DNA from: Alkalilimnicola ehrlichii MLHE-1
GTDB taxonomy: Bacteria; Pseudomonadota; Gammaproteobacteria; Nitrococcales; Halorhodospiraceae
DNA: 32,000 nt
Assembly (NCBI RefSeq): GCF_000014785.1
Contig: NC_008340.1
Location: 2,400,001-2,432,000 of the forward strand
Direction of reading: 5' to 3'
Position 1 is the first letter of the stretch, and every line of letters starts with the position of its first letter. Positions 2,743 to 32,000 of this stretch are shown here, piece after piece. A program made the position numbers and the translations under genes. Under the pieces are notes generated by a model. The model saw only the letters and a list, made by a program, of their open reading frames with translations, searched no databases and was not told the DNA's origin.

Positions 2743-2756
2743 TTGCCGTGAATCAA
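2743..2756. promoter_or_regulatory. Candidate FNR/DNR/NnrR-type box (TTGCCGTGAATCAA) in the norE-norC divergent intergenic region
   Basis: Fits TTG-N8-CAA. It has one perfect ATCAA half-site of the TTGAT-N4-ATCAA consensus; the left half (TTGCC) is degenerate. Confidence 0.35.
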
Positions 2757-2894: not shown

Positions 2895-3347
2895 ATGTCC
2901 GACGGTCTGACCAAGGCCGCGGCCCGGAACATTTTCTTCGGCGGGTCGCTGTTCTTCTTCATCCTCTTTGCCGCACTGACGGCACACAGCCACTGGTACA
3001 TCGTCAATCACTCCACCGACCACGCCGGCATGACCGACTCGGTCGTGGCGGGTAAGGAGGTCTGGGAGGAGCACAACTGCATTAATTGTCACACCATCCT
3101 CGGCGAGGGCGCCTACTTTGGCCCTGAGATGGGCAATGTCTGGACCCGGTTCGGCGGGCACCGGAGCCCCGAGGGTGCACGCGCCGCCATTGCCGGCTGG
3201 ATACGCGCCCAGCCCACCGGGGCCCCGGGGCGGCGGCAAATGCCCTACTTCGAAATCAACGATGAGGAGATGGACGCGCTGATCGATTTCCTCGAATGGA
3301 CCGACAACATCGACACCCAAGACTGGCCGCCCCACCCATCCGGATGA
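2895..3347 (+). CDS. norC: Nitric oxide reductase subunit C (membrane-anchored mono-heme cytochrome c)
   Basis: MSDGLTKAAARNIFFGGSLFFFILF... N-terminal anchor, heme-c motif CINCH, then TILGEGAYFGPEMGNV and PGRRQMPYF. Close match to Pseudomonas/Paracoccus NorC as recalled. The upstream part of the 2454 ORF is non-coding read-through. Confidence 0.92.
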   Translation: MSDGLTKAAARNIFFGGSLFFFILFAALTAHSHWYIVNHSTDHAGMTDSVVAGKEVWEEHNCINCHTILGEGAYFGPEMGNVWTRFGGHRSPEGARAAIAGWIRAQPTGAPGRRQMPYFEINDEEMDALIDFLEWTDNIDTQDWPPHPSG

Positions 3348-3407
3348 GCCACCGGCACTGACTGAACCACCGGTACAACGGGTCCCGAGACGAGGAGCAC
3401 GTCAACC

Positions 3408-4751
3408 ATGAAGTATGAAACCCAACGGGTGGCCTACCCCTTCTTTCTGGTCGCCATGGCGCTGTTCGCGCTGCAGATCACCTTCGGCATTCTGGCCGGC
3501 ACGGTCTACGTACTGCCCAACTTCCTCGCCGAAGCGATGCCCTTTCACATCATCCGCACCAGCCACACCAACCTGTTGATCGTCTGGCTACTGATCGGCT
3601 TCTTCGGCTGCACCTACTACCTGATACCGGAGGAGACGGAACACGAGCTCTACAGTCCCAAGCTGGCCTACATCCAGCTGGGGATCTTCGCCTTTGCCGG
3701 GGCCGCCGCCCTGGTGGGCTACCAGTTCGGTATCCACGAGGGACGCCACTACCTGGAGCAGCCCTTTTGGGTGAAGAGCTTGCTGACCCTCTCCTTCCTG
3801 ATGTTCCTGTTCAACACCACGATGACGCTGATCAAGGGCCGGCGCACGGCGGTGAGCCTGGTGCTCATGCTGGGCCTTTGGCTGGCGGCCATCTTCTGGA
3901 TGTTCGCCTTCTATAACCCGTCCAACCTGGCGCTGGACAAGCTCTACTGGTGGTGGATCGTCCACATCTGGGTGGAAGGCGTCTGGGAGCTGATCATGGC
4001 CGCCCTGCTCGGCTACCTGCTGATCAAGCTCACCGGCGTGGATCGGGAGATCATCGAGAAGTGGCTGTATGTGATCGTCGGTCTGTCGCTGTTTTCCGGT
4101 CTGCTCGGCACTGGCCACCACTATTACTGGATCGGCACCCCCGGCTACTGGCAGCCCATCGGCAGCATCTTCTCCACCCTGGAGGTCATCCCCTTCTTCG
4201 CCATGGTGGTGTTCGCCTTCTACATGTTCTGGAAGGGCAGCCGGAATCACCCCAACAAGGCGGCCATGCTGTGGACCCTCGGCTGTGCGGTCATCGCCTT
4301 CTTCGGCGCCGGCGTCTGGGGCTTCATGCACACCCTGTCGTTCATCAACTACTACACCCACGGCACCCAGATCACCGCCGCCCACGGCCACTTGGCCTTC
4401 TTCGGGGCCTACGTGATGCTGGTCCTGGCGCTCATCTCCTACGCCATGCCGCAGATGCGCCGGGTCCAGCCCTACAACCAGGTGATGAACATGTGGTCCT
4501 TCTGGATCATGACCTCCGCCATGTGCTTCATGACCTTCACCCTGACCTTCGCCGGTGTGGTGCAGACCCACCTGCAACGGGTGCTGGGCATGAACTTCAT
4601 GGAGGTGCAGGGCCAACTGGATATGTTCTACGTGATGCGGCTGGGTGCGGGCGTGGCCGTGGCCGTAGGCCTGGTACTGTTCCTCTGGTCGATTTACGGC
4701 CGGACCCGCGAGCAGGTGCCACAGACGGCCAATGTCCCAGGCACCGCCTGA
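3408..4751 (+). CDS. norB: Nitric oxide reductase subunit B (cNOR catalytic subunit, heme-copper oxidase superfamily)
   Basis: 447 aa, about 12 TM helices, His ligand motifs (GTGHHYYWIG, TAAHGHLAFFGAY, WGFMHTL). GAGGAG SD lies 10 nt upstream of ATG 3408. The gene sits directly after norC. Confidence 0.93.
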   Translation: MKYETQRVAYPFFLVAMALFALQITFGILAGTVYVLPNFLAEAMPFHIIRTSHTNLLIVWLLIGFFGCTYYLIPEETEHELYSPKLAYIQLGIFAFAGAAALVGYQFGIHEGRHYLEQPFWVKSLLTLSFLMFLFNTTMTLIKGRRTAVSLVLMLGLWLAAIFWMFAFYNPSNLALDKLYWWWIVHIWVEGVWELIMAALLGYLLIKLTGVDREIIEKWLYVIVGLSLFSGLLGTGHHYYWIGTPGYWQPIGSIFSTLEVIPFFAMVVFAFYMFWKGSRNHPNKAAMLWTLGCAVIAFFGAGVWGFMHTLSFINYYTHGTQITAAHGHLAFFGAYVMLVLALISYAMPQMRRVQPYNQVMNMWSFWIMTSAMCFMTFTLTFAGVVQTHLQRVLGMNFMEVQGQLDMFYVMRLGAGVAVAVGLVLFLWSIYGRTREQVPQTANVPGTA

Positions 4752-4775
4752 CTGCCTTCCGGCCAGGCCACGACG

Positions 4776-4808
4776 GTCTGCCACCGGGTCCGGAACCCGG
4801 TGGCAGAC
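4776..4808 (+). promoter_or_regulatory. Perfect 14-bp GC-rich stem-loop between norB and norQ (intercistronic attenuator or mRNA-stabilising hairpin candidate)
   Basis: GTCTGCCACCGGGT (4776-4789) - CCGGA - ACCCGGTGGCAGAC (4795-4808). No U-tract follows. Confidence 0.6.
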
Positions 4809-4861
4809 CCGCTCCGGCTGAGCGATCCCGACCCGTTCCCGATACGCAAGAGGTCCGGCTC

Positions 4862-5674
4862 ATGCCCCGATCCGCAGAAGCACTGGCAACGCCATCCCGC
4901 GACACTCCCTATTACGAGCCCGTGGGCGGTGAATGCCGCCTGTTCGAGCACGCCCACCAGCACGGCCTGCCGCTGCTGCTCAAGGGCCCCACCGGCTGTG
5001 GCAAGACCCGCTTCGTCAGCCATATGGCCACCCGCCTGGGCCGGCCGCTGTACACCGTCGCCTGTCATGACGACCTGACCGCCGCCGATCTCACCGGCCG
5101 CTACCTGTTGCAGGGCGGCGAGACCCGCTGGGTGGACGGCCCGCTGACCCGCGCGGTGCGCGAGGGCGGGATCTGCTACCTGGACGAGGTGGTGGAGGCG
5201 CGCAAAGACGTTACCGTGGTGCTGCACCCGCTCACCGACGACCGCCGTGTGCTCCCCCTGGAACGCACCGGCGAGCTGTTGCAGGCCCCGAAGGACTTCA
5301 TGCTGGTGGTCTCCTACAACCCGGGGTATCAGAACATCCTGAAGACCCTGAAACCGAGCACCCGGCAACGCTTCATGGCGCTCTCCTTTGACTTTCCCCC
5401 ACCGGAGACCGAGGTGGCCATCGTCAGTCGCGAGAGCGGGCTGGACCGGGACCGCTGCCTGGCCCTGGTCAACCTGGCGGTGCGGCTACGCGCCCTCAAG
5501 GGACAGGACCTTGAGGAGGGCGTCTCCACCCGGCTGCTGGTCTACTGCGCCAGCCTGATCCGCTCCGGCGTCCCCATCCTGGAGGCGGCCCACTGCACCC
5601 TGGTGGAGCCGCTCAGCGACGATGAGGACGTCAAGGCCGGACTCGCTGAAGCCGTGCACGCCACCTTCGGCTGA
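4862..5674 (+). CDS. norQ: NorQ/CbbQ-type MoxR-family AAA+ ATPase (NO reductase maturation)
   Basis: Walker A GPTGCGKT, Walker B ICYLDEVVEA, and a YNPGYQ...LKPSTRQRF region typical of CbbQ/NirQ/NorQ. AAGAGG SD precedes ATG 4862. Confidence 0.9.
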   Translation: MPRSAEALATPSRDTPYYEPVGGECRLFEHAHQHGLPLLLKGPTGCGKTRFVSHMATRLGRPLYTVACHDDLTAADLTGRYLLQGGETRWVDGPLTRAVREGGICYLDEVVEARKDVTVVLHPLTDDRRVLPLERTGELLQAPKDFMLVVSYNPGYQNILKTLKPSTRQRFMALSFDFPPPETEVAIVSRESGLDRDRCLALVNLAVRLRALKGQDLEEGVSTRLLVYCASLIRSGVPILEAAHCTLVEPLSDDEDVKAGLAEAVHATFG

Positions 5675-5702
5675 CCATCCGCCCGAGGCGCAGGAGAAGC
5701 CC

Positions 5703-7646
5703 ATGCTGCAGTTCCTGGAGGTGGAAGAGTTCGTCGGTCGCCACTGGCACCGTTGGGCATCGCAGGCACGGAGCTACCCGCGCCACCCGGAGGCCGCGGT
5801 CCAGCTCGCCACCCTGCGCGGCCTCCTGGGCGTGTTCTTCCGCGCCAGCGGGGGGCCGGCGGGGGTGCCGGTGGCCTCCATCGTGGCCCGCAACTCCCGT
5901 CACCGCCTGACCTGGCGGCAGCGCCTCGGGTTCGACGAGGAGCCGGTGGATCGGGCCCGCCGCGATGAGGAGAACCTGCTGCTGCCACCGGTGCTGGACT
6001 ACTTCCCCACCGCGGCTCAGAACCGCGACCACTATCTTTGGCTGGCGGCCTTCCTGGCCCTGGCGCGGCCACCGCGCACGGACCGCCTGCACGACCCATT
6101 GCAGCAGGATATCGTCCGGCTGCGGGAGGTCCACCGCGTGATCCAAACCATCCGCGACCGGCTACCGGGGCTCCACCAGCGTTACCGCGCCCTGGGCAGC
6201 GCCATGCTGGCACTGCGCCCCCGGCGCCGCCTGCCGCCCCAGGAGTCCGCCGTGGAGCTGGCCGTGCAGTACCTGCTCGGGGCCGCCCTGCCGGGTCGGA
6301 GCGCCGCCACGGCCATCGTCCGCGCCGTCACCGATCCACAAGTGGCCCTGGATGCGTTCCAGGCCGACCGGGATTACCGACCACCCCTGCCCATGCCGCT
6401 CTGGGGCGAGGTCGTCCCGCTGGGCACGGGGACCGGCGCCAAGCCGGGCGAGGGCCACGACGAGGGCGGCGCCACGGGCAGCCCCAAGCAGGCCAGCGAG
6501 GGCAAGCGCCAGGCCGAGCGCCGTCACCAGGACCAATGCGAGCGCGACGACCCGCTGGTCCTCAACCGCTTCGAGAAGATGCTCTCCTGGACGGAGATGG
6601 TGAACGTCAACCGGCTGGTTGAAGACGAGGAGGACGAAGAGGCCAAACGGGCTGCTGAACAGATCGAGGAGATCACCCTCAGCCCCCATAAGCAGCGCGC
6701 GGCCACCCGGCTGAAGGTGGACCTGGACCTGCCGCCGGACGCCGTCACCGGCGATCGCCTGCGCGCAACCCACACCTACCCGGAGTGGAACTTCCGCAAG
6801 CAGGCCTACCTGCCGGACCACTGCGCCGTGCACACGGACCTGCAGCCCGAGGAGGGCGAGGCCTGGCGCCCCGATGCCGGCACCCGCCGGCGCATCCGCC
6901 GGGTGCAACGCCAGTTCGAGGCCCTGCGCCCGCGCCGGGAACTGCTGCGCGCCCAGATCGATGGCGCGGAACTGGACATGGACGCCACCATCCGCGCCCA
7001 TTGCGACCTCCGGGCCACCGGCGAGGGCTCCGACAACATCTACCAGGCGGCCCGCTGCCAGGCCCGCGACCTGGCGGTGGCGATCCTGGTGGACTGCTCG
7101 CTCTCCACCGACGCCTGGCTGGAGGATCAGCGGATACTGGATGTGGAGAAGGAGGCCCTGCTGGTGCTGGCCCATGGCCTCAAGGGCTGCGGAGACGATT
7201 ATGCCATCTACACCTTCACCTCCCACCGGCGGCAGAAGGTCTGGGTAAATACCGTCAAGGCCTTCGACGAACCCCTCCAGGCGCGGGTGGAGCGCCGGAT
7301 CGGGGCACTCAAGCCCGGCCATTACACCCGCATGGGACCGGCGCTACGCCACGTCTCCGGCGAATTGGCCAAACGGCCCAATAGGCACAAACTGCTACTG
7401 GTGCTCACCGACGGCAAGCCCAACGATACCGACTACTATGAGGGCCGCTACGCCATCGAGGACACGCGCAAGGCGGTACGGGAGGCCCGGCGCCAGGCCC
7501 AGACGGTGTTCGGTGTCACCGTGGACAGCGAGGCCCAACAGTACTTTCCTTACCTGTTCGGACGGGCCGGCTACAGCATCGTCCAGCGGCCCGCCCACCT
7601 GGCCCAGAGCTTGCCGGCCATCTACCGTCAGATCATCAGCGAATAG
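5703..7646 (+). CDS. norD: NorD, von Willebrand factor A domain protein (NO reductase activation, partner of NorQ)
   Basis: C-terminal VWA domain with MIDAS-like ILVDCSLSTD and LLLVLTDGKPND. AGGAGA SD precedes ATG 5703. Its position after norQ fits the pairing. Confidence 0.88.
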   Translation: MLQFLEVEEFVGRHWHRWASQARSYPRHPEAAVQLATLRGLLGVFFRASGGPAGVPVASIVARNSRHRLTWRQRLGFDEEPVDRARRDEENLLLPPVLDYFPTAAQNRDHYLWLAAFLALARPPRTDRLHDPLQQDIVRLREVHRVIQTIRDRLPGLHQRYRALGSAMLALRPRRRLPPQESAVELAVQYLLGAALPGRSAATAIVRAVTDPQVALDAFQADRDYRPPLPMPLWGEVVPLGTGTGAKPGEGHDEGGATGSPKQASEGKRQAERRHQDQCERDDPLVLNRFEKMLSWTEMVNVNRLVEDEEDEEAKRAAEQIEEITLSPHKQRAATRLKVDLDLPPDAVTGDRLRATHTYPEWNFRKQAYLPDHCAVHTDLQPEEGEAWRPDAGTRRRIRRVQRQFEALRPRRELLRAQIDGAELDMDATIRAHCDLRATGEGSDNIYQAARCQARDLAVAILVDCSLSTDAWLEDQRILDVEKEALLVLAHGLKGCGDDYAIYTFTSHRRQKVWVNTVKAFDEPLQARVERRIGALKPGHYTRMGPALRHVSGELAKRPNRHKLLLVLTDGKPNDTDYYEGRYAIEDTRKAVREARRQAQTVFGVTVDSEAQQYFPYLFGRAGYSIVQRPAHLAQSLPAIYRQIISE

Positions 7647-20741: not shown

Positions 20742-23069
20742 TCAGGCAGCCTCTGATTGACACCGCTGTGCCGGTCGCGGCACTTTTCCGGGCCGGGACA
20801 GGTCCGCGGCCTCGAATTCGTCCACCTGGATCACCCGCATCACCGCTTGGTGGGCCGCTCGCAGCCGGCGGTGGTCCGGTTCGCTGATCCCCCCCGCGTC
20901 CAGCGCCGCCTGGTGGAGCGCGGCACCGTCGAGATCGGGCAGACGGCCGTCGCGCACCGCCTGGCGCAGGCGTTGCTCCAGGTCCTCGGTGGCCACCACC
21001 TCGCGCAGGGCCCACTCCAGGGCGCCGGTGGCGTCGTCGCGATCCCGACTCAGGTACAGCCCTGCCGTGAGCCGGTCCCGCACCTCGCCCGGTTCCAACA
21101 GGGTCTCGGCCACGCGGCGACCCAGGCGGTCGTCCGCGGGGCGCCGGCGCCGGCCCCAGGGGAAGAGCAACCGCCGCAGCAGGAACGCCGCCGGGCGCAC
21201 CGGCAGGTTGGCCAGAACCCGGTCCAACCGCTCCTGGATGCGGTAGAGCCCCTCCTGGCAGACCCAGTCCAGCAGGGGCCGGTCGGCGATCGGACAGCCG
21301 TCGTCCTCGTGCTGTTTCAACGCACAGCTCATCAGGTAGAGCTCACTGAGGACGTCCGCCAGCCGGCCGGAGAGGCGCTCGCGCCGCTTCAGCTCGCCGC
21401 CGAGGATCAGCAGCGCGGCATCCGCAACCAGGGCAAAATTGGCCGACTCGCGTGCGAGCTGGCGGTACCAGCGATCCAACGCACCGGCGCCGGGGGCACT
21501 GGCCAGGCGACCGCCGGTGGCGTTGTGGAGGGCCACCCGACCCAGGTTGGCGAGCAGGTGGCGCACGTGGCCCCAGAAGGCGCGGTCGAAGCCCGTCAGG
21601 TCCCCCGCCTGGGCGGTCTGCACCTCCCGCAGCAGCCACGGGTGGCAGCGCAGGGCCCCCTGCCCGAAGACGATCATGCTGCGGGTCAGGATGTTGGCCC
21701 CCTCCACGGTGATCCCCACCGGCAGGGCCTGGTAGGCCCCGAAGAGGGTGTTGGACGGGCCGGTGCAGATGGCCTTGCCGCCATGCACATCCATGGCGTC
21801 GGTGATGGCCTCGCGGCCGCCGGCGGTGGCCTGGTATTTGAGAATGGCCGAGATCACCGCCGGCTCGATGCCGGCATCCAGGGCGGCGGTGGTGACCCAG
21901 CGGCCGGCGTCCAGGCGATAGGCCTGGCCGGCAATGCGCGTCAGCGCCTCCTGCACCCCCTCGAAGCGGCCCACCGGGGTATTGAACTGGCGGCGCACCC
22001 GGGCGTAGGCGCCAGCGGTGCGCGCCGCCAGCTTGGCGTTGCCCACGCCGGCGGCCGGCAGCGAGATCGAGCGCCCCGCGGCGAGACAGCCCATCAACAT
22101 GCGCCAACCCTGGCCGGCGCGCGGCGGCCCGCCGATGATGAAATCCAGGGGGATGAAGACATCGCGCCCGCGGGTGGGGCCGTTCTGGAAGGCCACCCCG
22201 GCCGGGAAATGGCGTCGGCCGATCTCCACGCCGGGGTGATCGGTGGGGATCAGTGCCACGGTGATCCCGGGCACCGGACCCCGGCCCAACAGCTCGTCCG
22301 GATCCTCCAGCCGGAAGGCCAGGCCCAGCACCGTGGCCACGGGGGCCAGGGTGATGTAGCGCTTGTCCCAACTCACGCGCATGCCCAGCACCCGCTCTCC
22401 GCGGTAGTCGCCGTAACAGACCACCCCACGATCGGGGATGGAGGCCGCATCGGAGCCGGCGGTGGGCCCGGTGAGGGCAAAACAGGGGATCTCCTCCCCC
22501 CGGGCCAGGCGCGGCAGATAGTGGTTGCGCTGTGCCTCCGTCCCGTAGCGCAGCAACAGCTCCGCCGGGCCCAGCGAGTTGGGCACCGAGACCGTGACCC
22601 CGGCGGTGCCCTCACGCGCGCCCACCTTCATCACCACCTGGGAGTGGGCGGCGGCGGAGAACCCCAGGCCGCCATAGGCCCGGGGGATGATCATCCCGAG
22701 CAAGCCCTGATCGCGGATAAAGCGCCAGACCGGCTCCGGGAGGTCCCGCTGCTCGTTCACCTCCCAGGCGTCGAGCATGCGGCAGAGCGCCTCCACCGGC
22801 CCGTCGAGAAAGGCCTGCTCCGCCTCGCTCAGCCGCGCCGGGGGCAGCGAGCGCAGCACCGCCCAGTCCGGCCGGCCGGTGAAGAGCTGCGCATCCCACC
22901 AGGTATCGCCCGCCTCCAGCGCCTCCCGCTCAGTGGCGGAGATTGACGGCAGCCGCTGCCGGAGCAGGCCCATGACCGGGGCGCTGAGCAGCGAACGGCG
23001 CAGCGGCGCCAGCCACAGCAGCGCCAGCACCAGTAGCACCGCAACCGCGATGAGGTAGCTCAGCATCAT
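20742..23069 (-). CDS. fadE: Large FadE-type acyl-CoA dehydrogenase, paralog 2
   Basis: 775 aa, collinear with the 12706-15180 product (LLGMIIPRAYGG, CFALTGPTAGSDAA, ITVEGANILTRSMIVFGQGALRCHP). Tandem ATGs at 23069 and 23066 follow GGGAGGAG. Confidence 0.9.
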   Translation of the reverse strand: MMLSYLIAVAVLLVLALLWLAPLRRSLLSAPVMGLLRQRLPSISATEREALEAGDTWWDAQLFTGRPDWAVLRSLPPARLSEAEQAFLDGPVEALCRMLDAWEVNEQRDLPEPVWRFIRDQGLLGMIIPRAYGGLGFSAAAHSQVVMKVGAREGTAGVTVSVPNSLGPAELLLRYGTEAQRNHYLPRLARGEEIPCFALTGPTAGSDAASIPDRGVVCYGDYRGERVLGMRVSWDKRYITLAPVATVLGLAFRLEDPDELLGRGPVPGITVALIPTDHPGVEIGRRHFPAGVAFQNGPTRGRDVFIPLDFIIGGPPRAGQGWRMLMGCLAAGRSISLPAAGVGNAKLAARTAGAYARVRRQFNTPVGRFEGVQEALTRIAGQAYRLDAGRWVTTAALDAGIEPAVISAILKYQATAGGREAITDAMDVHGGKAICTGPSNTLFGAYQALPVGITVEGANILTRSMIVFGQGALRCHPWLLREVQTAQAGDLTGFDRAFWGHVRHLLANLGRVALHNATGGRLASAPGAGALDRWYRQLARESANFALVADAALLILGGELKRRERLSGRLADVLSELYLMSCALKQHEDDGCPIADRPLLDWVCQEGLYRIQERLDRVLANLPVRPAAFLLRRLLFPWGRRRRPADDRLGRRVAETLLEPGEVRDRLTAGLYLSRDRDDATGALEWALREVVATEDLEQRLRQAVRDGRLPDLDGAALHQAALDAGGISEPDHRRLRAAHQAVMRVIQVDEFEAADLSRPGKVPRPAQRCQSEAA

Positions 23070-23156
23070 CTCCTCCCTTCATCCTCCGGGCCCCGGCGAT
23101 CTGTCGCCGCCTGGGGCGGATGCCGGCGGTCGGATCGCCGCCGGCCGGCTATAGGT

Positions 23157-23170
23157 AAAACGTTTGTTTG
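23157..23170. promoter_or_regulatory. PsrA-type operator candidate upstream of the fadE paralog 2 operon
   Basis: AAAAC-GTTT-GTTTG fits the recalled PsrA consensus (G/C)AAAC-N2-4-GTTT(G/C). It lies about 90 nt upstream of the 23069 start, next to a CCGGGG-(T/A)8-CCCCGG hairpin (23174-23193). Confidence 0.45.
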
Positions 23171-23213
23171 ACGCCGGGGTAAAAAAACCCCGGGACCCCG
23201 CACGACCCGGACC

Positions 23214-23903
23214 TCAGCCCGAGCCGGCGGCCACCTCGGTCGTACCCGCCTCGCTGGCCTCCTCCTGCAGCTCCGGGGGCAGCGGGGCGCGCAGCCCACC
23301 CACCAGAAAGGGCACCACCCGCCGAATGATCTCCCGCGGCTCGTCCGGGTTGGCGCTGCGGCTCGCCGCCAGCACCTGCATCATGTCGTTGCCCGCCATG
23401 ACGTAGGACATCACCCCCACCATGAAGTGCAGGCGCCAGTAGAGCTCGCCCTTGGGTAAGTCCGGCAGCACCTGGCGGAAGGCCGGCTTGAAACGACTGA
23501 CCAGCCCCTCGTTGGCCTGGCGCATGTGGTCGTGCAGGAAGCTGGCGTGCTCGGTATAGGTACGGCCCATCAGGCGCACGAACCGGCTGCCACCGCCACC
23601 GTCCCGGCTCAGTTCCAGCGGCGGGCCGATGAAGGCCTCAATCAGCCCCTCCAGGGTGAGCTCGCCGGCGCGTTCCAGCCGGTCCAACCGGCGGATGCGC
23701 TCGCGGTTCAATGGCTCCAGCCGCCGCCCCAACACCGCCTTGATCAGCCCCTGCTTGGAGCCAAAATGGTAATTAACTGCGGCCAGATTGACCTCCGCCT
23801 GCGACGTGATCTGGCGCAGCGAGGTCTGCCCCAGGCCGCGCTCGGCGAACAGCCGCTCGGCCGTGTCCAGAATGCGTTCCTTGGTGTCGGAGGCTTCGGC
23901 CAT
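23214..23903 (-). CDS. psrA: TetR-family transcriptional repressor, PsrA-like fatty-acid-responsive regulator of beta-oxidation
   Basis: The N-terminal HTH ERILDTAERLFAERGLGQTSLRQITSQAEVNLAAVNYHFGSKQGLIKAV is very close to Pseudomonas PsrA as I recall it. The later LYWRLHFMVG and VVPFLVGGLRA motifs also match. It heads a fad operon and is flanked by PsrA-type palindromes. Confidence 0.7.
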   Translation of the reverse strand: MAEASDTKERILDTAERLFAERGLGQTSLRQITSQAEVNLAAVNYHFGSKQGLIKAVLGRRLEPLNRERIRRLDRLERAGELTLEGLIEAFIGPPLELSRDGGGGSRFVRLMGRTYTEHASFLHDHMRQANEGLVSRFKPAFRQVLPDLPKGELYWRLHFMVGVMSYVMAGNDMMQVLAASRSANPDEPREIIRRVVPFLVGGLRAPLPPELQEEASEAGTTEVAAGSG

Positions 23904-23921
23904 GGTGTCAGATCCCGGAGT

Positions 23922-23935
23922 TAAACGTACGTTTA
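23922..23935. promoter_or_regulatory. Perfect 14-bp palindrome TAAACGTACGTTTA: PsrA-type autoregulatory operator candidate
   Basis: AAAC-N4-GTTT core, 19 nt upstream of the psrA ATG. It overlaps the predicted transcription start of the promoter listed next. Confidence 0.55.
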
Positions 23936-23963
23936 TTTATAGCGCCTCTCAGCGCCGGGTCAA
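23936..23963 (-). promoter_or_regulatory. Sigma-70-type promoter candidate for psrA
   Basis: On the minus strand: TTGACC (23963-23958), 16-nt spacer, TATAAA (23941-23936). Confidence 0.5.
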
Positions 23964-23972
23964 GCCCCTTTT

Positions 23973-23989
23973 ATGGTGCGTCGCACCAT
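23973..23989. repeat. Perfect 17-bp palindrome ATGGTGCG-T-CGCACCAT in the psrA-cbpA divergent intergenic region
   Basis: 8-1-8 inverted repeat read directly from the sequence. It sits 10 bp beyond the psrA -35 and 36 bp before the cbpA -35-like element. Confidence 0.6.
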
Positions 23990-24024
23990 TCTGGCCCGCC
24001 CTGGTTCCCGAGGCAACCGACTGC

Positions 24025-24054
24025 CTTGAAGCCACCCCGTTGACGACCCATATA
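24025..24054 (+). promoter_or_regulatory. Sigma-32 (heat-shock) type promoter candidate for cbpA-cbpM
   Basis: CTTGAA (24025-24030), 15-nt spacer, ACCCATATA (24046-24054), compared with the recalled consensus CTTGAA-N13-15-CCCCATnTA. The ACGACCCATATAG stretch resembles E. coli dnaK P1. Confidence 0.45.
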
Positions 24055-24127
24055 GATGAAGAGGATGCGAATAAGACGTAGCGACAGCTGAAAGTGCCAT
24101 GGGCCACTACGAGGGACACGGACGCGC

Positions 24128-25099
24128 ATGAAGTTCAAGGACTATTACCAGATCATGGGCGTCAGCCGGGACGCCAGCCAGGACGAAATCAGGCGGGCCT
24201 ACCGCAAACTGGCCCGCAAGTACCACCCGGATGTGAGCAAAGAGCCGGACGCGGAACAGAGATTCAAGGAATTGGGCGAGGCCTACGAGGTCCTTAAGGA
24301 CCCGGAAAAGCGGGCCGCCTACGACCAGCTGGGACGCGACTACCAGGCCGGACAGGACTTCCGGCCACCGCCGGACTGGGGTGAACAGGGCTTTCAGTTC
24401 CACGGCGCGGAGTTCACCGGCGCGGACGCCTCGGAGTTCAGCGACTTCTTCGAGTCGCTGTTCGGGGGCGGCTTCGGCCGGCCGGGGGGATTCGCCCGGG
24501 GCGGCCGCCGGGCCGGCGGCCCCCACTTCCGGGCCCGCGGTGAGGACGCCCACGCCCGTATCCTCATCGACCTGGACGACGCCTTCCACGGGGCCAATCG
24601 CACCCTGACCCTGAACACCACGGAGATCGGCGACGACGGGCGGCCCCGGCGCCGGGAGCGCACCCTCAACGTGCACATCCCCAAAGGGGTCCACCAGGGC
24701 CAGCACATCCGCCTGGCCGGACAGGGCAATCCGGGCATCGGCGGCGGCCCGCCGGGCGATCTCTTCCTTGAGGTGGCGTTCCGCCCTCACCCCCTCTACC
24801 GGGTGGAGGGACGCGACGTCTTCCTCGACCTGCCGGTGGCGCCCTGGGAGGCCGCCCTGGGGGCCCACGTGCAGGTGCCCACCCCCACCGGCAAGGTGGC
24901 GCTGCACATCCCGGCGGGCTCGCTGGGGGGACACAAGCTGCGGCTGAAGGGCCGTGGTATCCCGGGCCATCCGCCGGGTGATCTCTACGCGGTGCTGCGG
25001 ATTGCCCTGCCACCGGCCGATACCGAGGCGGCCCGCAAGGCCTACCGCGACATGCAGCAGGCCCTCGACTTCAACCCGCGCGCCAGGCTGGGGGTGTGA
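24128..25099 (+). CDS. cbpA: Curved-DNA-binding protein CbpA (DnaJ-like co-chaperone)
   Basis: J-domain [52 protein letters not shown] with HPD. There is no Zn-finger region, and the C-terminus is CbpA-like (PWEAALGA..., [12 protein letters not shown]). Confidence 0.92.
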
Positions 25100-25104
25100 A
25101 CACC

Positions 25105-25428
25105 ATGACAAGGAAGATGCAGACGGTCATCCGCGGCGAGATCCTGGAAGAGGAGGTGGTGCTGACCCTGGGCGAGTTGTGTCGGGTCTGCCGGCTGCCC
25201 GCCGACGAACTGCTGGTGATGGTGGATGAGGGCATCATCGAACCGCTGGAGCGCGGCCCCACCACCCAATGGCGGTTTCACGGCGCCAGCGTGCGTCGGG
25301 TGCACCGGGCAGTGCAGCTGCACCGCGACCTGGGCGTGAACTGGGCCGGCGCCGCCCTGGCCCTGGAGCTGCTGGAGGAGATGGAGTCGCTACGCCAGCG
25401 CCTGCAGCGCCTGGAGGGCCATCCCTGA
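25105..25428 (+). CDS. cbpM: Chaperone modulatory protein CbpM (MerR-like)
   Basis: Immediately follows and overlaps the cbpA stop. LGELCRVCRLPADELLVMVDEGIIEP...VRRVHRAVQLHRDLGVNWAGAALALELLEE resembles E. coli CbpM. An alternative GTG start at 25096 overlaps the cbpA TGA. Confidence 0.85.
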   Translation: MTRKMQTVIRGEILEEEVVLTLGELCRVCRLPADELLVMVDEGIIEPLERGPTTQWRFHGASVRRVHRAVQLHRDLGVNWAGAALALELLEEMESLRQRLQRLEGHP

Positions 25429-25594
25429 CGGGACGGGCCCCGCCCGGGCCCGCCCGGTTCGGTGCCAGCCCGCCGGGAGACCGTATTGCGCCGGGCCGCC
25501 TGCCCGGCGAGCGGTGTGCGCTCCAGCAACCTGAGGCCACACTTGGTATCCTATGCGGTTCCCTTGCATTAGCCGCCGACGTAGCCACCAGACC

Positions 25595-29290
<3,696 letters not shown>

Positions 29291-29596
29291 AAGCGGGTGC
29301 CGGCGGGGCCCAGGGTGAGAGGCGCTGCGACTTTTCACCGCACCCATCCAGTGGGGCCACCCGCCGGAGCCGGCGCCCTAACCGGATTCGATGCTGGGCT
29401 CCCCATGAATCAATGAGATAACCTGGCAGCGCGGTCATAATTATCGCCTAGGAGGAGTTGGAGCCCCCTCACTCCCCCCGTCGGCGTAGTCGGTCTCCAC
29501 CTTTCGGGGTATTGCACCGGCACCGGGAAGACACCACGCTTAAGCCCTAACACATCAGTAGACCCGGCGCGCCAAGCGTCGGCTCCGGTAAAGGCC

Positions 29597-30367
29597 ATGC
29601 ACGACTACAAGACCGACAACATCACTCCCCTGAGCCAGCGGCGCGACCGTTGCCGGGGCTGCGGCCTGCGGAATATCTGTTTCGGCATCCTCCACCACGC
29701 CCCCGAGGCGGATCTGCTGGAGCGGCTGATCTGCCGGCGCGGTCCCCTGCCCTCCGGCACGGTGCTGTTCGAGGCCGACGACCCGCTGGAGCGGTTGTGC
29801 GTGATCCGGGTGGGGTCAGCACGACGGGAGAGCCCGACCGGGGGCGAGGGGGGCACCCGGCGCGTGGTCGGCTTTGCCCTGCCCGGGGAGGTGATGGGGC
29901 TGGACGCCCTCTACCAACAGCGCCACCCCACCAATGCGGTGTTGCTGCAAAGCAGCTACGTCTGCGAGCTGCCCTTTCAACCGCTGCAGGCACTGGCCAG
30001 CGAGGTGCCCCAGCTCTGGCACCAGTTGCTCCGGCTCTCCGGGGAGGCCGTCTACCAGCACAAGCGCAGCCGTCTGGCCATGAGCCAAACGCTGGCCGAG
30101 GCCCGGCTCGCCCACGCCCTGCTGGACCTGGCACACCGGATGGCCCGGCGCGGCATGTCCGCCCAGACCCTCGATCTGCCCATGCCGCGCCAGGAGCTGG
30201 GCAATCAACTCGGCCTGGCGCCCAATACCACCAGCCGGGCCTTCCGTTTCCTGAAAGAGCAGGGCTGGCTGGAGGCGGACGGCCGCCAGATCACCCTGCT
30301 GGACCCCGAGGCCCTGGCCAAGCTGGCGAACTGGTCGGAGCCTACGCCGACGGCTCGCTCGGCCTGA
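29597..30367 (+). CDS. fnr: FNR/ANR-type Crp-family oxygen-sensing transcription regulator ([4Fe-4S] Cys cluster present)
   Basis: N-terminal C-x2-C-x5-C (CRGCGLRNIC) plus the central Cys in SSYVCELPF match the FNR C20/C23/C29/C122 pattern. cNMP-like beta-roll is present, and the C-terminal HTH is ELGNQLGLAPNTTSRAFRFL. Confidence 0.85.
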   Translation: MHDYKTDNITPLSQRRDRCRGCGLRNICFGILHHAPEADLLERLICRRGPLPSGTVLFEADDPLERLCVIRVGSARRESPTGGEGGTRRVVGFALPGEVMGLDALYQQRHPTNAVLLQSSYVCELPFQPLQALASEVPQLWHQLLRLSGEAVYQHKRSRLAMSQTLAEARLAHALLDLAHRMARRGMSAQTLDLPMPRQELGNQLGLAPNTTSRAFRFLKEQGWLEADGRQITLLDPEALAKLANWSEPTPTARSA

Positions 30368-30815
30368 AGCGGCGCTCGCCCTCCGCCACCAGCCCCGCCA
30401 GTCGCAGCAGCGGTCGCCGGAAACGGGGGGGCAACGCCTCGGGATCGAGCTGGTCCAGGGCGTTCTTCGCCATCAGGCCCAGCTCGGTATCACCCTGAAT
30501 ACTCAGCCGCCGCTGGAAGAAGAGCGTATCCGGGTCGGCGCACTCGCCGGCCATCAGCAGGAAGGCCCCGAGGTCGCCGCGGATGGAGGCCTCCGGCTCG
30601 CACCCGTGGGCCGCCACCAGCCGCCCGTCCCGCCAGCTCAACGGCAGGGCCAGGCCCCAGTCCCTCAGCCGCACCTCCAGGCAGCGCGCCTCCAGGAAGT
30701 CGAACACCCCATCCGCCAGGGGGTCGGCCAGTGCCTGGTTGATCAGCCCTACAAGCACCCGGTCCAGGCGCCGCTTGAGGAATCGTGCCCCGGGGGGCGT
30801 TGGCAGATGCGTCAT
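30342..30815 (-). CDS. ubiT: SCP2-domain ubiquinone biosynthesis accessory factor UbiT (YhbT-like)
   Basis: DPDTLFFQRRLSIQGDTELGLMAKNALD is near-identical to the E. coli YhbT core as recalled. The ATG at 30815 overlaps the ubiV stop (ATGA) and is preceded by AGGAGG. Confidence 0.85.
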   Translation of the reverse strand: MTHLPTPPGARFLKRRLDRVLVGLINQALADPLADGVFDFLEARCLEVRLRDWGLALPLSWRDGRLVAAHGCEPEASIRGDLGAFLLMAGECADPDTLFFQRRLSIQGDTELGLMAKNALDQLDPEALPPRFRRPLLRLAGLVAEGERRFRPSEPSA

Positions 30816-31729
30816 ACCTGTTCCTCCTGCTCTTGTGCCTGGCGAGCCAGCCGTGCCATGCCAGCCTCGCCGAACCAGTAGCCATCGCAACAGGCCGCCG
30901 GGTCCAGTCCCGGGATCAGGGCCGGCGCCGGCCGGCCCGCGGCGACCGCCGCGTAGGCGTGCACTACCGCGGCCATATCCTCGCCCCAGGGACTCAGACG
31001 GATGGCGGTGGCCCCCGCGTCGCGGACGGAGTCCAGGGCGTCCAGCAGGTGCAGCCAGCGGCCGGACTGCAGTTGGATGCCGTTGATACGCAGGAACTCA
31101 TCGCCGTCCCGGGTGGCCATGGGCAGGCCGCTGGGGTGTTCCAGGCAGCGAAAGCCGCATTGATCCTTGGGCCGGTCCACCGCCCGGGCGGTAAAGCACC
31201 GCGCCGACCAGGCCAGCGGTAGCGGGCCGAAGACCTGAACCTCGACCTCCAGGCCCTCGGCCGCCTGCCCCAGTCCGTCAACATTGTCGCGGACCATCTC
31301 CTCCGGCATCTCCACCGGGGGCACCCAGACCCGCATCCCCGCCGATTGCAGCACTGCCAGGGTGCGGGGGTTGTAGACATTCAGGGTGGGCCCGGCGACG
31401 AAGGCGGCACCCGCCTCCCGCGCCAACTGCACCGCCCCCATGTCGTTGGCCTCCACCCGGAATTCGCCGTTCTCGCACAGGCGCCGGACCACGCCCATCT
31501 CCGAACGCGCCTCCACCAGCGCCAGGCTGGAGAGCACCACCGCCTTACCGGCCTGGCGCAGCTCCCGGCCCAAGCCGATCCAGTCATCCAGGCTGAAGGC
31601 GCGGCGCTTGCTGCACACCGTCTCCCCCAGATAAACGGTATCCACCGGCCAGTCGGCCACCGACTGGTAGAAGGCGCTCAGGCGCTCGGCCGGCCAGTAA
31701 TAGGGCACCGGCCCCAGGGTCACTTGCAT
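30812..31729 (-). CDS. ubiV: U32-family protein UbiV (YhbV-like), O2-independent ubiquinone hydroxylation
   Basis: MQVTLGPVPYYWP..., YLGETVCSKRR, and WSARCFTARAVDRPKDQCGFRC carry the four Cys that bind the Fe-S cluster in E. coli UbiV. Start 31729 has a GGGAG SD. The in-frame ATG 31750 overlapping the ubiU stop is an alternative. Confidence 0.85.
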   Translation of the reverse strand: MQVTLGPVPYYWPAERLSAFYQSVADWPVDTVYLGETVCSKRRAFSLDDWIGLGRELRQAGKAVVLSSLALVEARSEMGVVRRLCENGEFRVEANDMGAVQLAREAGAAFVAGPTLNVYNPRTLAVLQSAGMRVWVPPVEMPEEMVRDNVDGLGQAAEGLEVEVQVFGPLPLAWSARCFTARAVDRPKDQCGFRCLEHPSGLPMATRDGDEFLRINGIQLQSGRWLHLLDALDSVRDAGATAIRLSPWGEDMAAVVHAYAAVAAGRPAPALIPGLDPAACCDGYWFGEAGMARLARQAQEQEEQV

Positions 31730-31746
31730 GGGCATTCGCTCCCGCA

Positions 31747-32000
31747 TCATTGCCAGCTCCGGTGATAGGCGCCGAGGGTGGTCTGGGCCCCTTCCGACAG
31801 CTCCGCCAGGGTGCTCATCCAGTCCTCGCGCGGGCGAAAGCCGTTCCGGTCGGCCTGGCAGGCGTCGATCGCCTGGCGCCAGATCCGCGCCACCTGGGCC
31901 ACGTAGGCGGGACTGCGCTGGCGGCCCTCAATCTTCACCGCGCTGATGCCGGCGGCCATCAGCTCCGGCAGCAGGCCGAGGGTGTTGAGGCTGGTGGGCG
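31747..32000 (-). CDS. ubiU: U32-family protein UbiU (YhbU-like), C-terminal part only (5' end beyond window)
   Basis: The frame is open to the window edge. ...TSLNTLGLLPELMAAGISAVKIEGRQRSPAYVAQVARIWRQAID...SEGAQTTLGAYHRSWQ matches the E. coli YhbU C-terminus as recalled. Confidence 0.8.
   Translation of the reverse strand, partial: PTSLNTLGLLPELMAAGISAVKIEGRQRSPAYVAQVARIWRQAIDACQADRNGFRPREDWMSTLAELSEGAQTTLGAYHRSWQ

Follow-up and report, generated by a model that had tools for sequence, protein, structure and literature searches.

The closest described counterparts of the genes considered here are those of Escherichia coli and Pseudomonas aeruginosa. Besides ubiquinone, E. coli also uses naphthoquinones for anaerobic growth. 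Its ubiU and ubiV genes (yhbU and yhbV) directly follow each other, whereas ubiT (yhbT) is divergent from them and possesses an FNR-dependent as well as a constitutive promoter of its own; ubiUV and ubiT are FNR-activated via the one-sided sites F1 (TTGATTTAAGGCAG) and F2 (TTGATTTATACCGC) (PMC10470549). In P. aeruginosa, the three genes constitute a ubiUVT operon (PA3913-PA3912-PA3911), which is essential for anaerobic synthesis of ubiquinone-9 (UQ9) and for denitrification (bioRxiv 10.1101/2020.03.22.002311). Pelosi et al. described 106 three-gene loci among 210 genomes (PMC6747719), and in a later survey of 1566 loci (ISME J 2024) ubiV was always found after ubiU, whereas ubiT was situated up- or downstream and on the same or the opposite strand, resulting in four main architectures (PMC11707229). 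Here we describe a stretch of 32,000 bp of the Alkalilimnicola ehrlichii MLHE-1 chromosome (termed the window, to which all positions refer unless a locus is named), the last part of which (30342-32000, minus strand) represents, with a probability of about 93%, the ubiU-ubiV-ubiT operon of this species, i.e., the oxygen-independent branch of its ubiquinone biosynthesis. The operon and its two junctions, the latter read directly from the sequence, are organized as follows:

30342-30815, minus strand: ubiT, encoding an SCP2-domain protein of 157 aa, an accessory factor in anaerobic ubiquinone synthesis
30812-30828, minus strand: ubiV/ubiT junction, with an ATGA stop/start overlap (30812-30815) and the motif AGGAGGA (30822-30828) inside the end of ubiV
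30812-31729, minus strand: ubiV, encoding a 305-aa U32-family [4Fe-4S] protein; the open reading frame from the first ATG extends to 31750 (312 aa), its upstream start being probably unused
31727-31749, minus strand: ubiU/ubiV junction, with the ubiU stop codon TGA (31747-31749), GGGAG (31739-31743), and the probable ubiV start codon ATG (31727-31729)
31747-32000, minus strand: 3' end of ubiU, comprising the last 83 of 331 codons; the gene runs on to the window-equivalent position 32742

Pfam alone resolves only SCP2 and Peptidase_U32 domains in the operon proteins, and family membership was assigned with NCBIfam equivalog models and their curated cut-offs, which all three proteins exceed. The ubiT product exhibits both the SCP2 domain (Pfam, 60.5 bits) and a match to the UbiT model NF047962 (120.5 bits, cut-off 46.9), the latter being its sole NCBIfam family match at E <= 0.01, such that it is assigned to UbiT as distinct from UbiJ; it is 39% identical to E. 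coli UbiT over the full length, with the block DPDTLFFQRRL.I.GDTELGL invariant. UbiV scores 357.9 bits with its model NF047965 (cut-off 275) and 371.6 bits with the E. coli YhbV model NF011991 (cut-off 283), and its identity to E. coli UbiV is 45% over the full length. Concerning UbiU, the 83-residue fragment within the window scores 117 bits on the NCBIfam UbiU model (positions 249-331), compared with 35 bits on the model of the tRNA hydroxylase TrhP, and shares 73% identity with E. coli UbiU. The window from 22001 to 32000 is 100% identical to the A. ehrlichii chromosome CP183314.1 (locus L083, whose coordinates plus 21596 give those of the window), from which the complete protein of 331 aa could be read (L083:10151-11146). 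Full-length UbiU reaches 558.2 bits with the UbiU model NF047963 (cut-off 440) and is 66% identical to its E. coli orthologue. The E. coli K-12 reference genes were taken from the annotated chromosome, on which ubiT is indeed divergent from ubiUV, as the initial annotation of the window had said.

All eight cysteines known from the E. coli proteins are kept. UbiV C39/C180/C193/C197 and UbiU C169/C176/C193/C232 were shown experimentally to be the cluster ligands in E. coli (PMC6747719), and the former correspond to C46/C185/C198/C202 of A. ehrlichii UbiV (numbering of the 312-aa open reading frame), with the CXnCX12CX3C spacing retained. The four UbiU ligands, at positions beyond the window end and read in L083, are invariant, which settles the check on full-length UbiU that the initial annotation had proposed. 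The motifs on which that annotation had based its identification (VCSKRR, SARCFTAR, and QCGFRC; KIEGRQRSPAYV...TTLGAYHRSWQ; DPDTLFFQRRLSIQGDTELGL) are all present, and the identification itself holds. Its remark that such genes are still annotated as protease or sterol carrier is outdated for this locus: RefSeq already uses the names "ubiquinone anaerobic biosynthesis accessory factor UbiT" and "ubiquinone anaerobic biosynthesis protein UbiU" for two of the three genes. Taken together, the three proteins are identical to the A. ehrlichii MLHE-1 entries ABI57475, ABI57476, and ABI57478, UbiT being ABI57476. Searches of PDB sequences with the three proteins gave no matches, i.e., no relative's structure was detectable by sequence.

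The three genes are arranged in the order U-V-T on one strand, as is evident from both the open reading frames and the sequence, with ubiV straight after ubiU and ubiT co-localised, which is the arrangement that defines a ubiTUV locus (PMC11707229). At the ubiV/ubiT junction, TCAT on the plus strand corresponds to ATGA on the coding strand, such that the ubiV stop codon overlaps the ubiT start codon and the two genes have 4 nt in common; the AGGAGGA Shine-Dalgarno motif is situated 6 nt 5' of the ubiT start. The overlapping stop and start codons initially proposed for the whole operon are thus found at this junction, whereas ubiU and ubiV are likely separated by a 17-nt spacer between the ubiU stop and the ATG at 31729, which is preceded by GGGAG 9 nt upstream. 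The ubiV open reading frame contains four in-frame ATGs (M1, M2, M6, and M8), and M8 (ATG 31729) is the only one with both a well-spaced GGGAG and a match to the start in relatives and in E. coli: M8/Q9 of the long open reading frame are the residues aligned with the first residue of E. coli UbiV and with profile position 1 (NCBIfam), and the start MQ(V/L)TLGP is used by gene callers and in an Alkalispirillum-like relative (locus L090), which is devoid of any upstream in-frame ubiV ATG. The most likely start of ubiV on these sequence grounds is therefore ATG 31729, behind a ribosome-binding site of its own. An exact look-up with the 312-aa version of UbiV remained without a match because gene callers begin the protein at M8. 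Given the starts of the relatives and this ribosome-binding site, the second ATGA at 31747-31750, formed by the ubiU stop and the first ubiV ATG, is probably not functional. Within the operon, no promoter-like or terminator-like site was found on the coding strand, and an Rfam scan of the operon plus the 720-bp upstream spacer revealed no family at E <= 1.

Synteny is conserved among relatives. All four Ectothiorhodospiraceae-type genomes examined, i.e., A. ehrlichii, the Alkalispirillum-like relative, Thioalkalivibrio nitratireducens (L094), and Methylonatrum kenyense (L095), possess U-V-T on the same strand and have this same-strand ubiTUV architecture (PMC11707229) in common, including the ATGA overlap between ubiV and ubiT. 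UbiV of the Alkalispirillum-like relative is 77% identical to that of A. ehrlichii, and in the three other genomes ubiU and ubiV are separated by 16-23 nt with a Shine-Dalgarno motif and without an upstream in-frame ATG. In a wider set of 80 loci fetched with UbiV (at most 54% identity, mostly Lysobacterales), ubiU and ubiV are adjacent throughout, and ubiT is mostly convergent downstream or outside the 6-kb flank.

The same-strand layout constitutes a real contrast to E. coli, where ubiT is transcribed from its own promoters, whereas in A. ehrlichii it comes third in the operon, with a start codon that overlaps the ubiV stop. It is, however, neither unusual nor novel, because P. aeruginosa possesses a ubiUVT operon as well and the layout is one of the four main architectures. 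In general, the UbiU/V/T system, its gene architectures, and its linkage to FNR have been published before, and RefSeq already lists the genes under these names, such that the locus offers nothing new in kind. The operon order of P. aeruginosa is equal to that of A. ehrlichii, and both hosts use ubiquinone and respire nitrogen oxides; the neighbours differ: the P. aeruginosa operon adjoins molybdopterin genes, that of A. ehrlichii an FNR-like gene (convergent) and a Zn-dependent dehydrogenase gene (divergent). In M. kenyense (L095 1996-3911), nnrS and a Dnr-like regulator precede ubiUVT, and nosR and moeA are situated nearby; in T. nitratireducens (L094 6643-7784), nnrS is found downstream of ubiT.

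By homology to E. coli and P. aeruginosa, UbiU and UbiV would form a heterodimer with one [4Fe-4S] cluster per subunit, bound by the four conserved cysteines, which would perform the three oxygen-free ring hydroxylations (C5, C1, and C6) of polyprenyl-phenol intermediates. Prephenate is reported as the oxygen donor of UbiU-UbiV, likewise for the related TrhP. UbiT, an SCP2 lipid-binding protein, is thought to hold the hydrophobic intermediates and would thus be the anaerobic counterpart of UbiJ. Presumably, ubiU, ubiV, and ubiT are transcribed as one unit from upstream of ubiU, with ubiV translated from its own ribosome-binding site and ubiT coupled to ubiV through the ATGA overlap.

Under anoxia, the operon would supply A. 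ehrlichii with a high-potential quinone pool. The species uses ubiquinone, oxidises arsenite, and grows with oxygen or, anaerobically, with nitrate (PMC2500031, with reference to Hoeft et al. 2007); arsenite can serve as the electron donor during growth on nitrate. The anoxic, nitrogen-oxide-respiring way of life suggested for it from the window fits these data. For a nitrate-respiring, arsenite-oxidising soda-lake bacterium, an oxygen-independent ubiquinone pathway is a sensible account of anoxic quinone supply; the significance beyond correct annotation is slight. The recurrent linkage of the operon to genes of nitrogen-oxide respiration fits the findings in P. aeruginosa. In the window itself, a nitric oxide reductase cluster is situated at some distance:

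about 2896-7646: norCB(Q)D cluster, with the norC start codon ATG at 2896, norB at 3408-4751, and norD at 5622-7646

From the 3' end of this cluster to ubiT, 22.7 kb were measured, in agreement with the approximately 23 kb first given. The norC start is preceded by an FNR/Dnr-type box (TTGCCGTGAATCAA, 2743-2756, plus strand), with its centre at a distance of 146.5 bp.

Concerning the region upstream of ubiU, a predicted FNR site was reported for 78% of same-strand loci, and an FNR-type site upstream of the first gene for 87% of ubiTUV loci (PMC11707229). We scanned 77 related loci for the box yTGAy-N4-rTCAA, counting matches out of 10 and measuring from the centre of the box to the ubiU ATG. 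In 60 of the 77 loci, ubiU is preceded at 60.5-67.5 bp by a box with at least 7/10 matches (at least 8/10: 49 loci; mean of the shuffled control: 0.02 loci). T. nitratireducens exhibits a perfect box (TTGATGCAGATCAA) and Methylonatrum a 9/10 box (TTGATCGGGGTCAA), both at 64.5 bp. Upstream of A. ehrlichii ubiU, the search for a canonical box with at most two mismatches revealed none except TTGCCATCGATCAA (8/10), which lies upstream of both ubiU (at 602 bp) and the divergently transcribed Zn-dependent dehydrogenase gene (at 119.5 bp); in the entire 16.8-kb locus, five matches of this quality were found versus 1.26 expected, a weak excess. The Alkalispirillum-like relative has retained the distal box (TTGCCATGCATCAA), at 98.5 bp from ubiU in a spacer of only 220 bp. 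In A. ehrlichii, around 500 bp have been added between the distal box and ubiU, with nine CCGTCATYGCGAG repeats in both orientations:

32814-33227 (window-equivalent positions, = L083 11218-11631): CCGTCATYGCGAG repeat cluster, within the 721-bp spacer between ubiU and the dehydrogenase gene, beyond the window end

Neither the 220-bp spacer of the relative nor the 32-kb window contains these repeats. If transcribed, the insertion is predicted to fold strongly (z = -6.55); it has no Rfam match, and two A. ehrlichii strains are distinguished by a 29-bp indel in the repeat region. The boxes TTGCCATCGATCAA and TTGCCATGCATCAA and the one upstream of norC have a TTGCC-N4-ATCAA flavour in common. As regards T. 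nitratireducens (CP003989.2), the publicly called ubiU (L094 3797-4984) encodes 395 aa, and an E. coli-like start, MELVCPAG, is found at 3986; the perfect FNR box (L094 3915-3928) falls within the called N-terminal extension. The public call is probably 63 codons too long.

At its other end, the operon abuts an FNR-type regulator gene, as had been noticed initially, the two being arranged tail to tail:

29597-30367, plus strand: FNR-like gene of the Crp/Fnr family, convergent with ubiT; Pfam cNMP_binding and HTH_Crp_2 domains

The coding 3' ends of this gene and of ubiT overlap by 26 nt (30342-30367), leaving no room for terminators between them, and the same overlap is kept in the Alkalispirillum-like relative (L090 7360-7385). 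The best NCBIfam match of the protein is to the Fnr subfamily with 152 bits, i.e., below the cut-off of 228 bits. The four cysteines of E. coli FNR (C20/C23/C29/C122) are present as C19/C22/C28/C123. In the recognition helix, the protein exhibits NTTSR, whereas 30 of 33 aligned sequences (E. coli FNR and the 30 best representatives among them) show E-T-x-S-R, with E209 in E. coli; N at this position occurs only in the Alkalilimnicola and Alkalispirillum proteins of the alignment. A regular-expression count of this residue over 149 matches of an exhaustive search was unreliable, since it picked up other SR dipeptides, and was not used. In that search, which covered 1.84 billion representatives, no cluster apart from the protein's own exceeded 41% identity, and a word-indexed search yielded a sole close homologue, in Alkalispirillum mobile (83%). 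Given the score below the cut-off and the N in the helix, the neighbouring gene is classified by its sequence as FNR-like and not as an FNR/ANR orthologue; it represents a lineage-restricted paralogue. A changed DNA specificity is conceivable, because E209, one of the residues with which E. coli FNR reads the TTGAT half-site, is replaced at the equivalent position.

Several points weigh against our interpretation of the locus as a functional, anaerobically induced ubiUVT operon. The A. ehrlichii case is built on sequence and homology, in contrast to the genetics available for P. aeruginosa; ubiU is cut by the window end, and its identity was taken from the identical public genome. As to function, homology to the characterized proteins would have to carry over to A. 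ehrlichii. Furthermore, at the position where most relatives possess their FNR box, A. ehrlichii has TTGATTCAGCGCTT (6/10, with one intact TTGAT half-site, 64.5 bp upstream of ubiU), and with the box reduced to one half-site, anaerobic induction via FNR is plausible, yet less certain here than in most relatives. As to the identity of the genes, the U32 proteins might belong to another clade (a TrhP/TrhO partner, RlhA, or a true peptidase), with the SCP2 protein as an unrelated lipid carrier. Peptidase_U32 is indeed common to all U32 proteins, and UbiU matches the TrhP model at E = 1e-49. TrhP (YegQ), a prephenate-dependent tRNA uridine-34 hydroxylase, shares the U32 fold family, a conserved cysteine motif, and oxygen-independent hydroxylation; it differs from UbiU here, however, in its greater length (449-position model), its tRNA substrate, and the lack of a UbiV or SCP2 partner gene. 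The match of UbiU to the TrhP model amounts to 169 bits, far below the cut-off of 534, against 558 bits with its own model, and UbiU groups with neither RlhA nor TrhP. With UbiV and UbiT clearing their own equivalog cut-offs, a cysteine pattern specific to UbiU/UbiV, and the gene trio in the arrangement defining a ubiTUV locus (PMC11707229), membership in another clade is hardly credible.

The identification as ubiUVT being retained, the mode of its regulation can be read in different ways. The operon might lack classical FNR control, being constitutive (as proposed for Magnetococcia) or transcribed from a promoter provided by the repeat-rich insertion. The half-site stands alone at 64.5 bp, where T. 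nitratireducens and Methylonatrum possess perfect and 9/10 boxes, respectively, and between ubiU and the only 8/10 box there are around 500 bp with nine repeats; compared with typical same-strand loci, A. ehrlichii thus retains no more than a half-site where the box is usually found, plus an inserted repeat cluster further upstream. A -10 element at class-II distance from the half-site was sought by eye, and none was convincing. Moreover, 22% of same-strand loci have no FNR site upstream of ubiU (PMC11707229). On the other hand, F1 and F2, which function in E. coli, are comparably one-sided (PMC10470549), the half-site is located at exactly the conserved distance, and the distal box is kept in the Alkalispirillum-like relative, such that we consider control without FNR rather unlikely, while still deserving attention. 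Alternatively, the adjacent FNR-like protein might be a dedicated ubiUVT regulator with changed DNA specificity, replacing the general FNR/ANR. Its synteny and the 26-nt tail overlap are kept in the only other lineage with the paralogue, its four Fe-S cysteines are retained together with the N in place of a near-invariant E, and among the four same-strand U-V-T genomes the two carriers of the paralogue are the ones in which a box with 7/10 or more matches is missing at 60.5-67.5 bp. However, the ubiU and regulator-gene upstream regions of A. ehrlichii and its relative yielded no common alternative motif but only 8-10-mers at chance level; Crp/Fnr adjacency to ubiUV is sporadic elsewhere, with an FNR-like gene within 6 kb in 2 of the 80 loci (a Lysobacterales-biased set), more than 2.5 kb away in both; and convergent neighbours do not require a functional link. 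A dedicated regulator therefore appears improbable. In Methylonatrum, the Dnr-like regulator directly upstream of ubiU is devoid of the cysteines.

In a broader sense, the control of anaerobic ubiquinone synthesis in Alkalilimnicola and Alkalispirillum may have been rewired, with loss of the FNR box and either a dedicated regulatory role of the paralogue, directed at a new target sequence, or convergent overlapping transcription linking both genes; we regard this as speculative and quite doubtful. The regulatory region and the FNR paralogue might nevertheless provide a small case study in transcription-factor rewiring.

Elsewhere in the window, metH (25553-29290, plus strand) comprises 1245 aa if counted from the first ATG, whereas public calls start 14 codons later (1231 aa).

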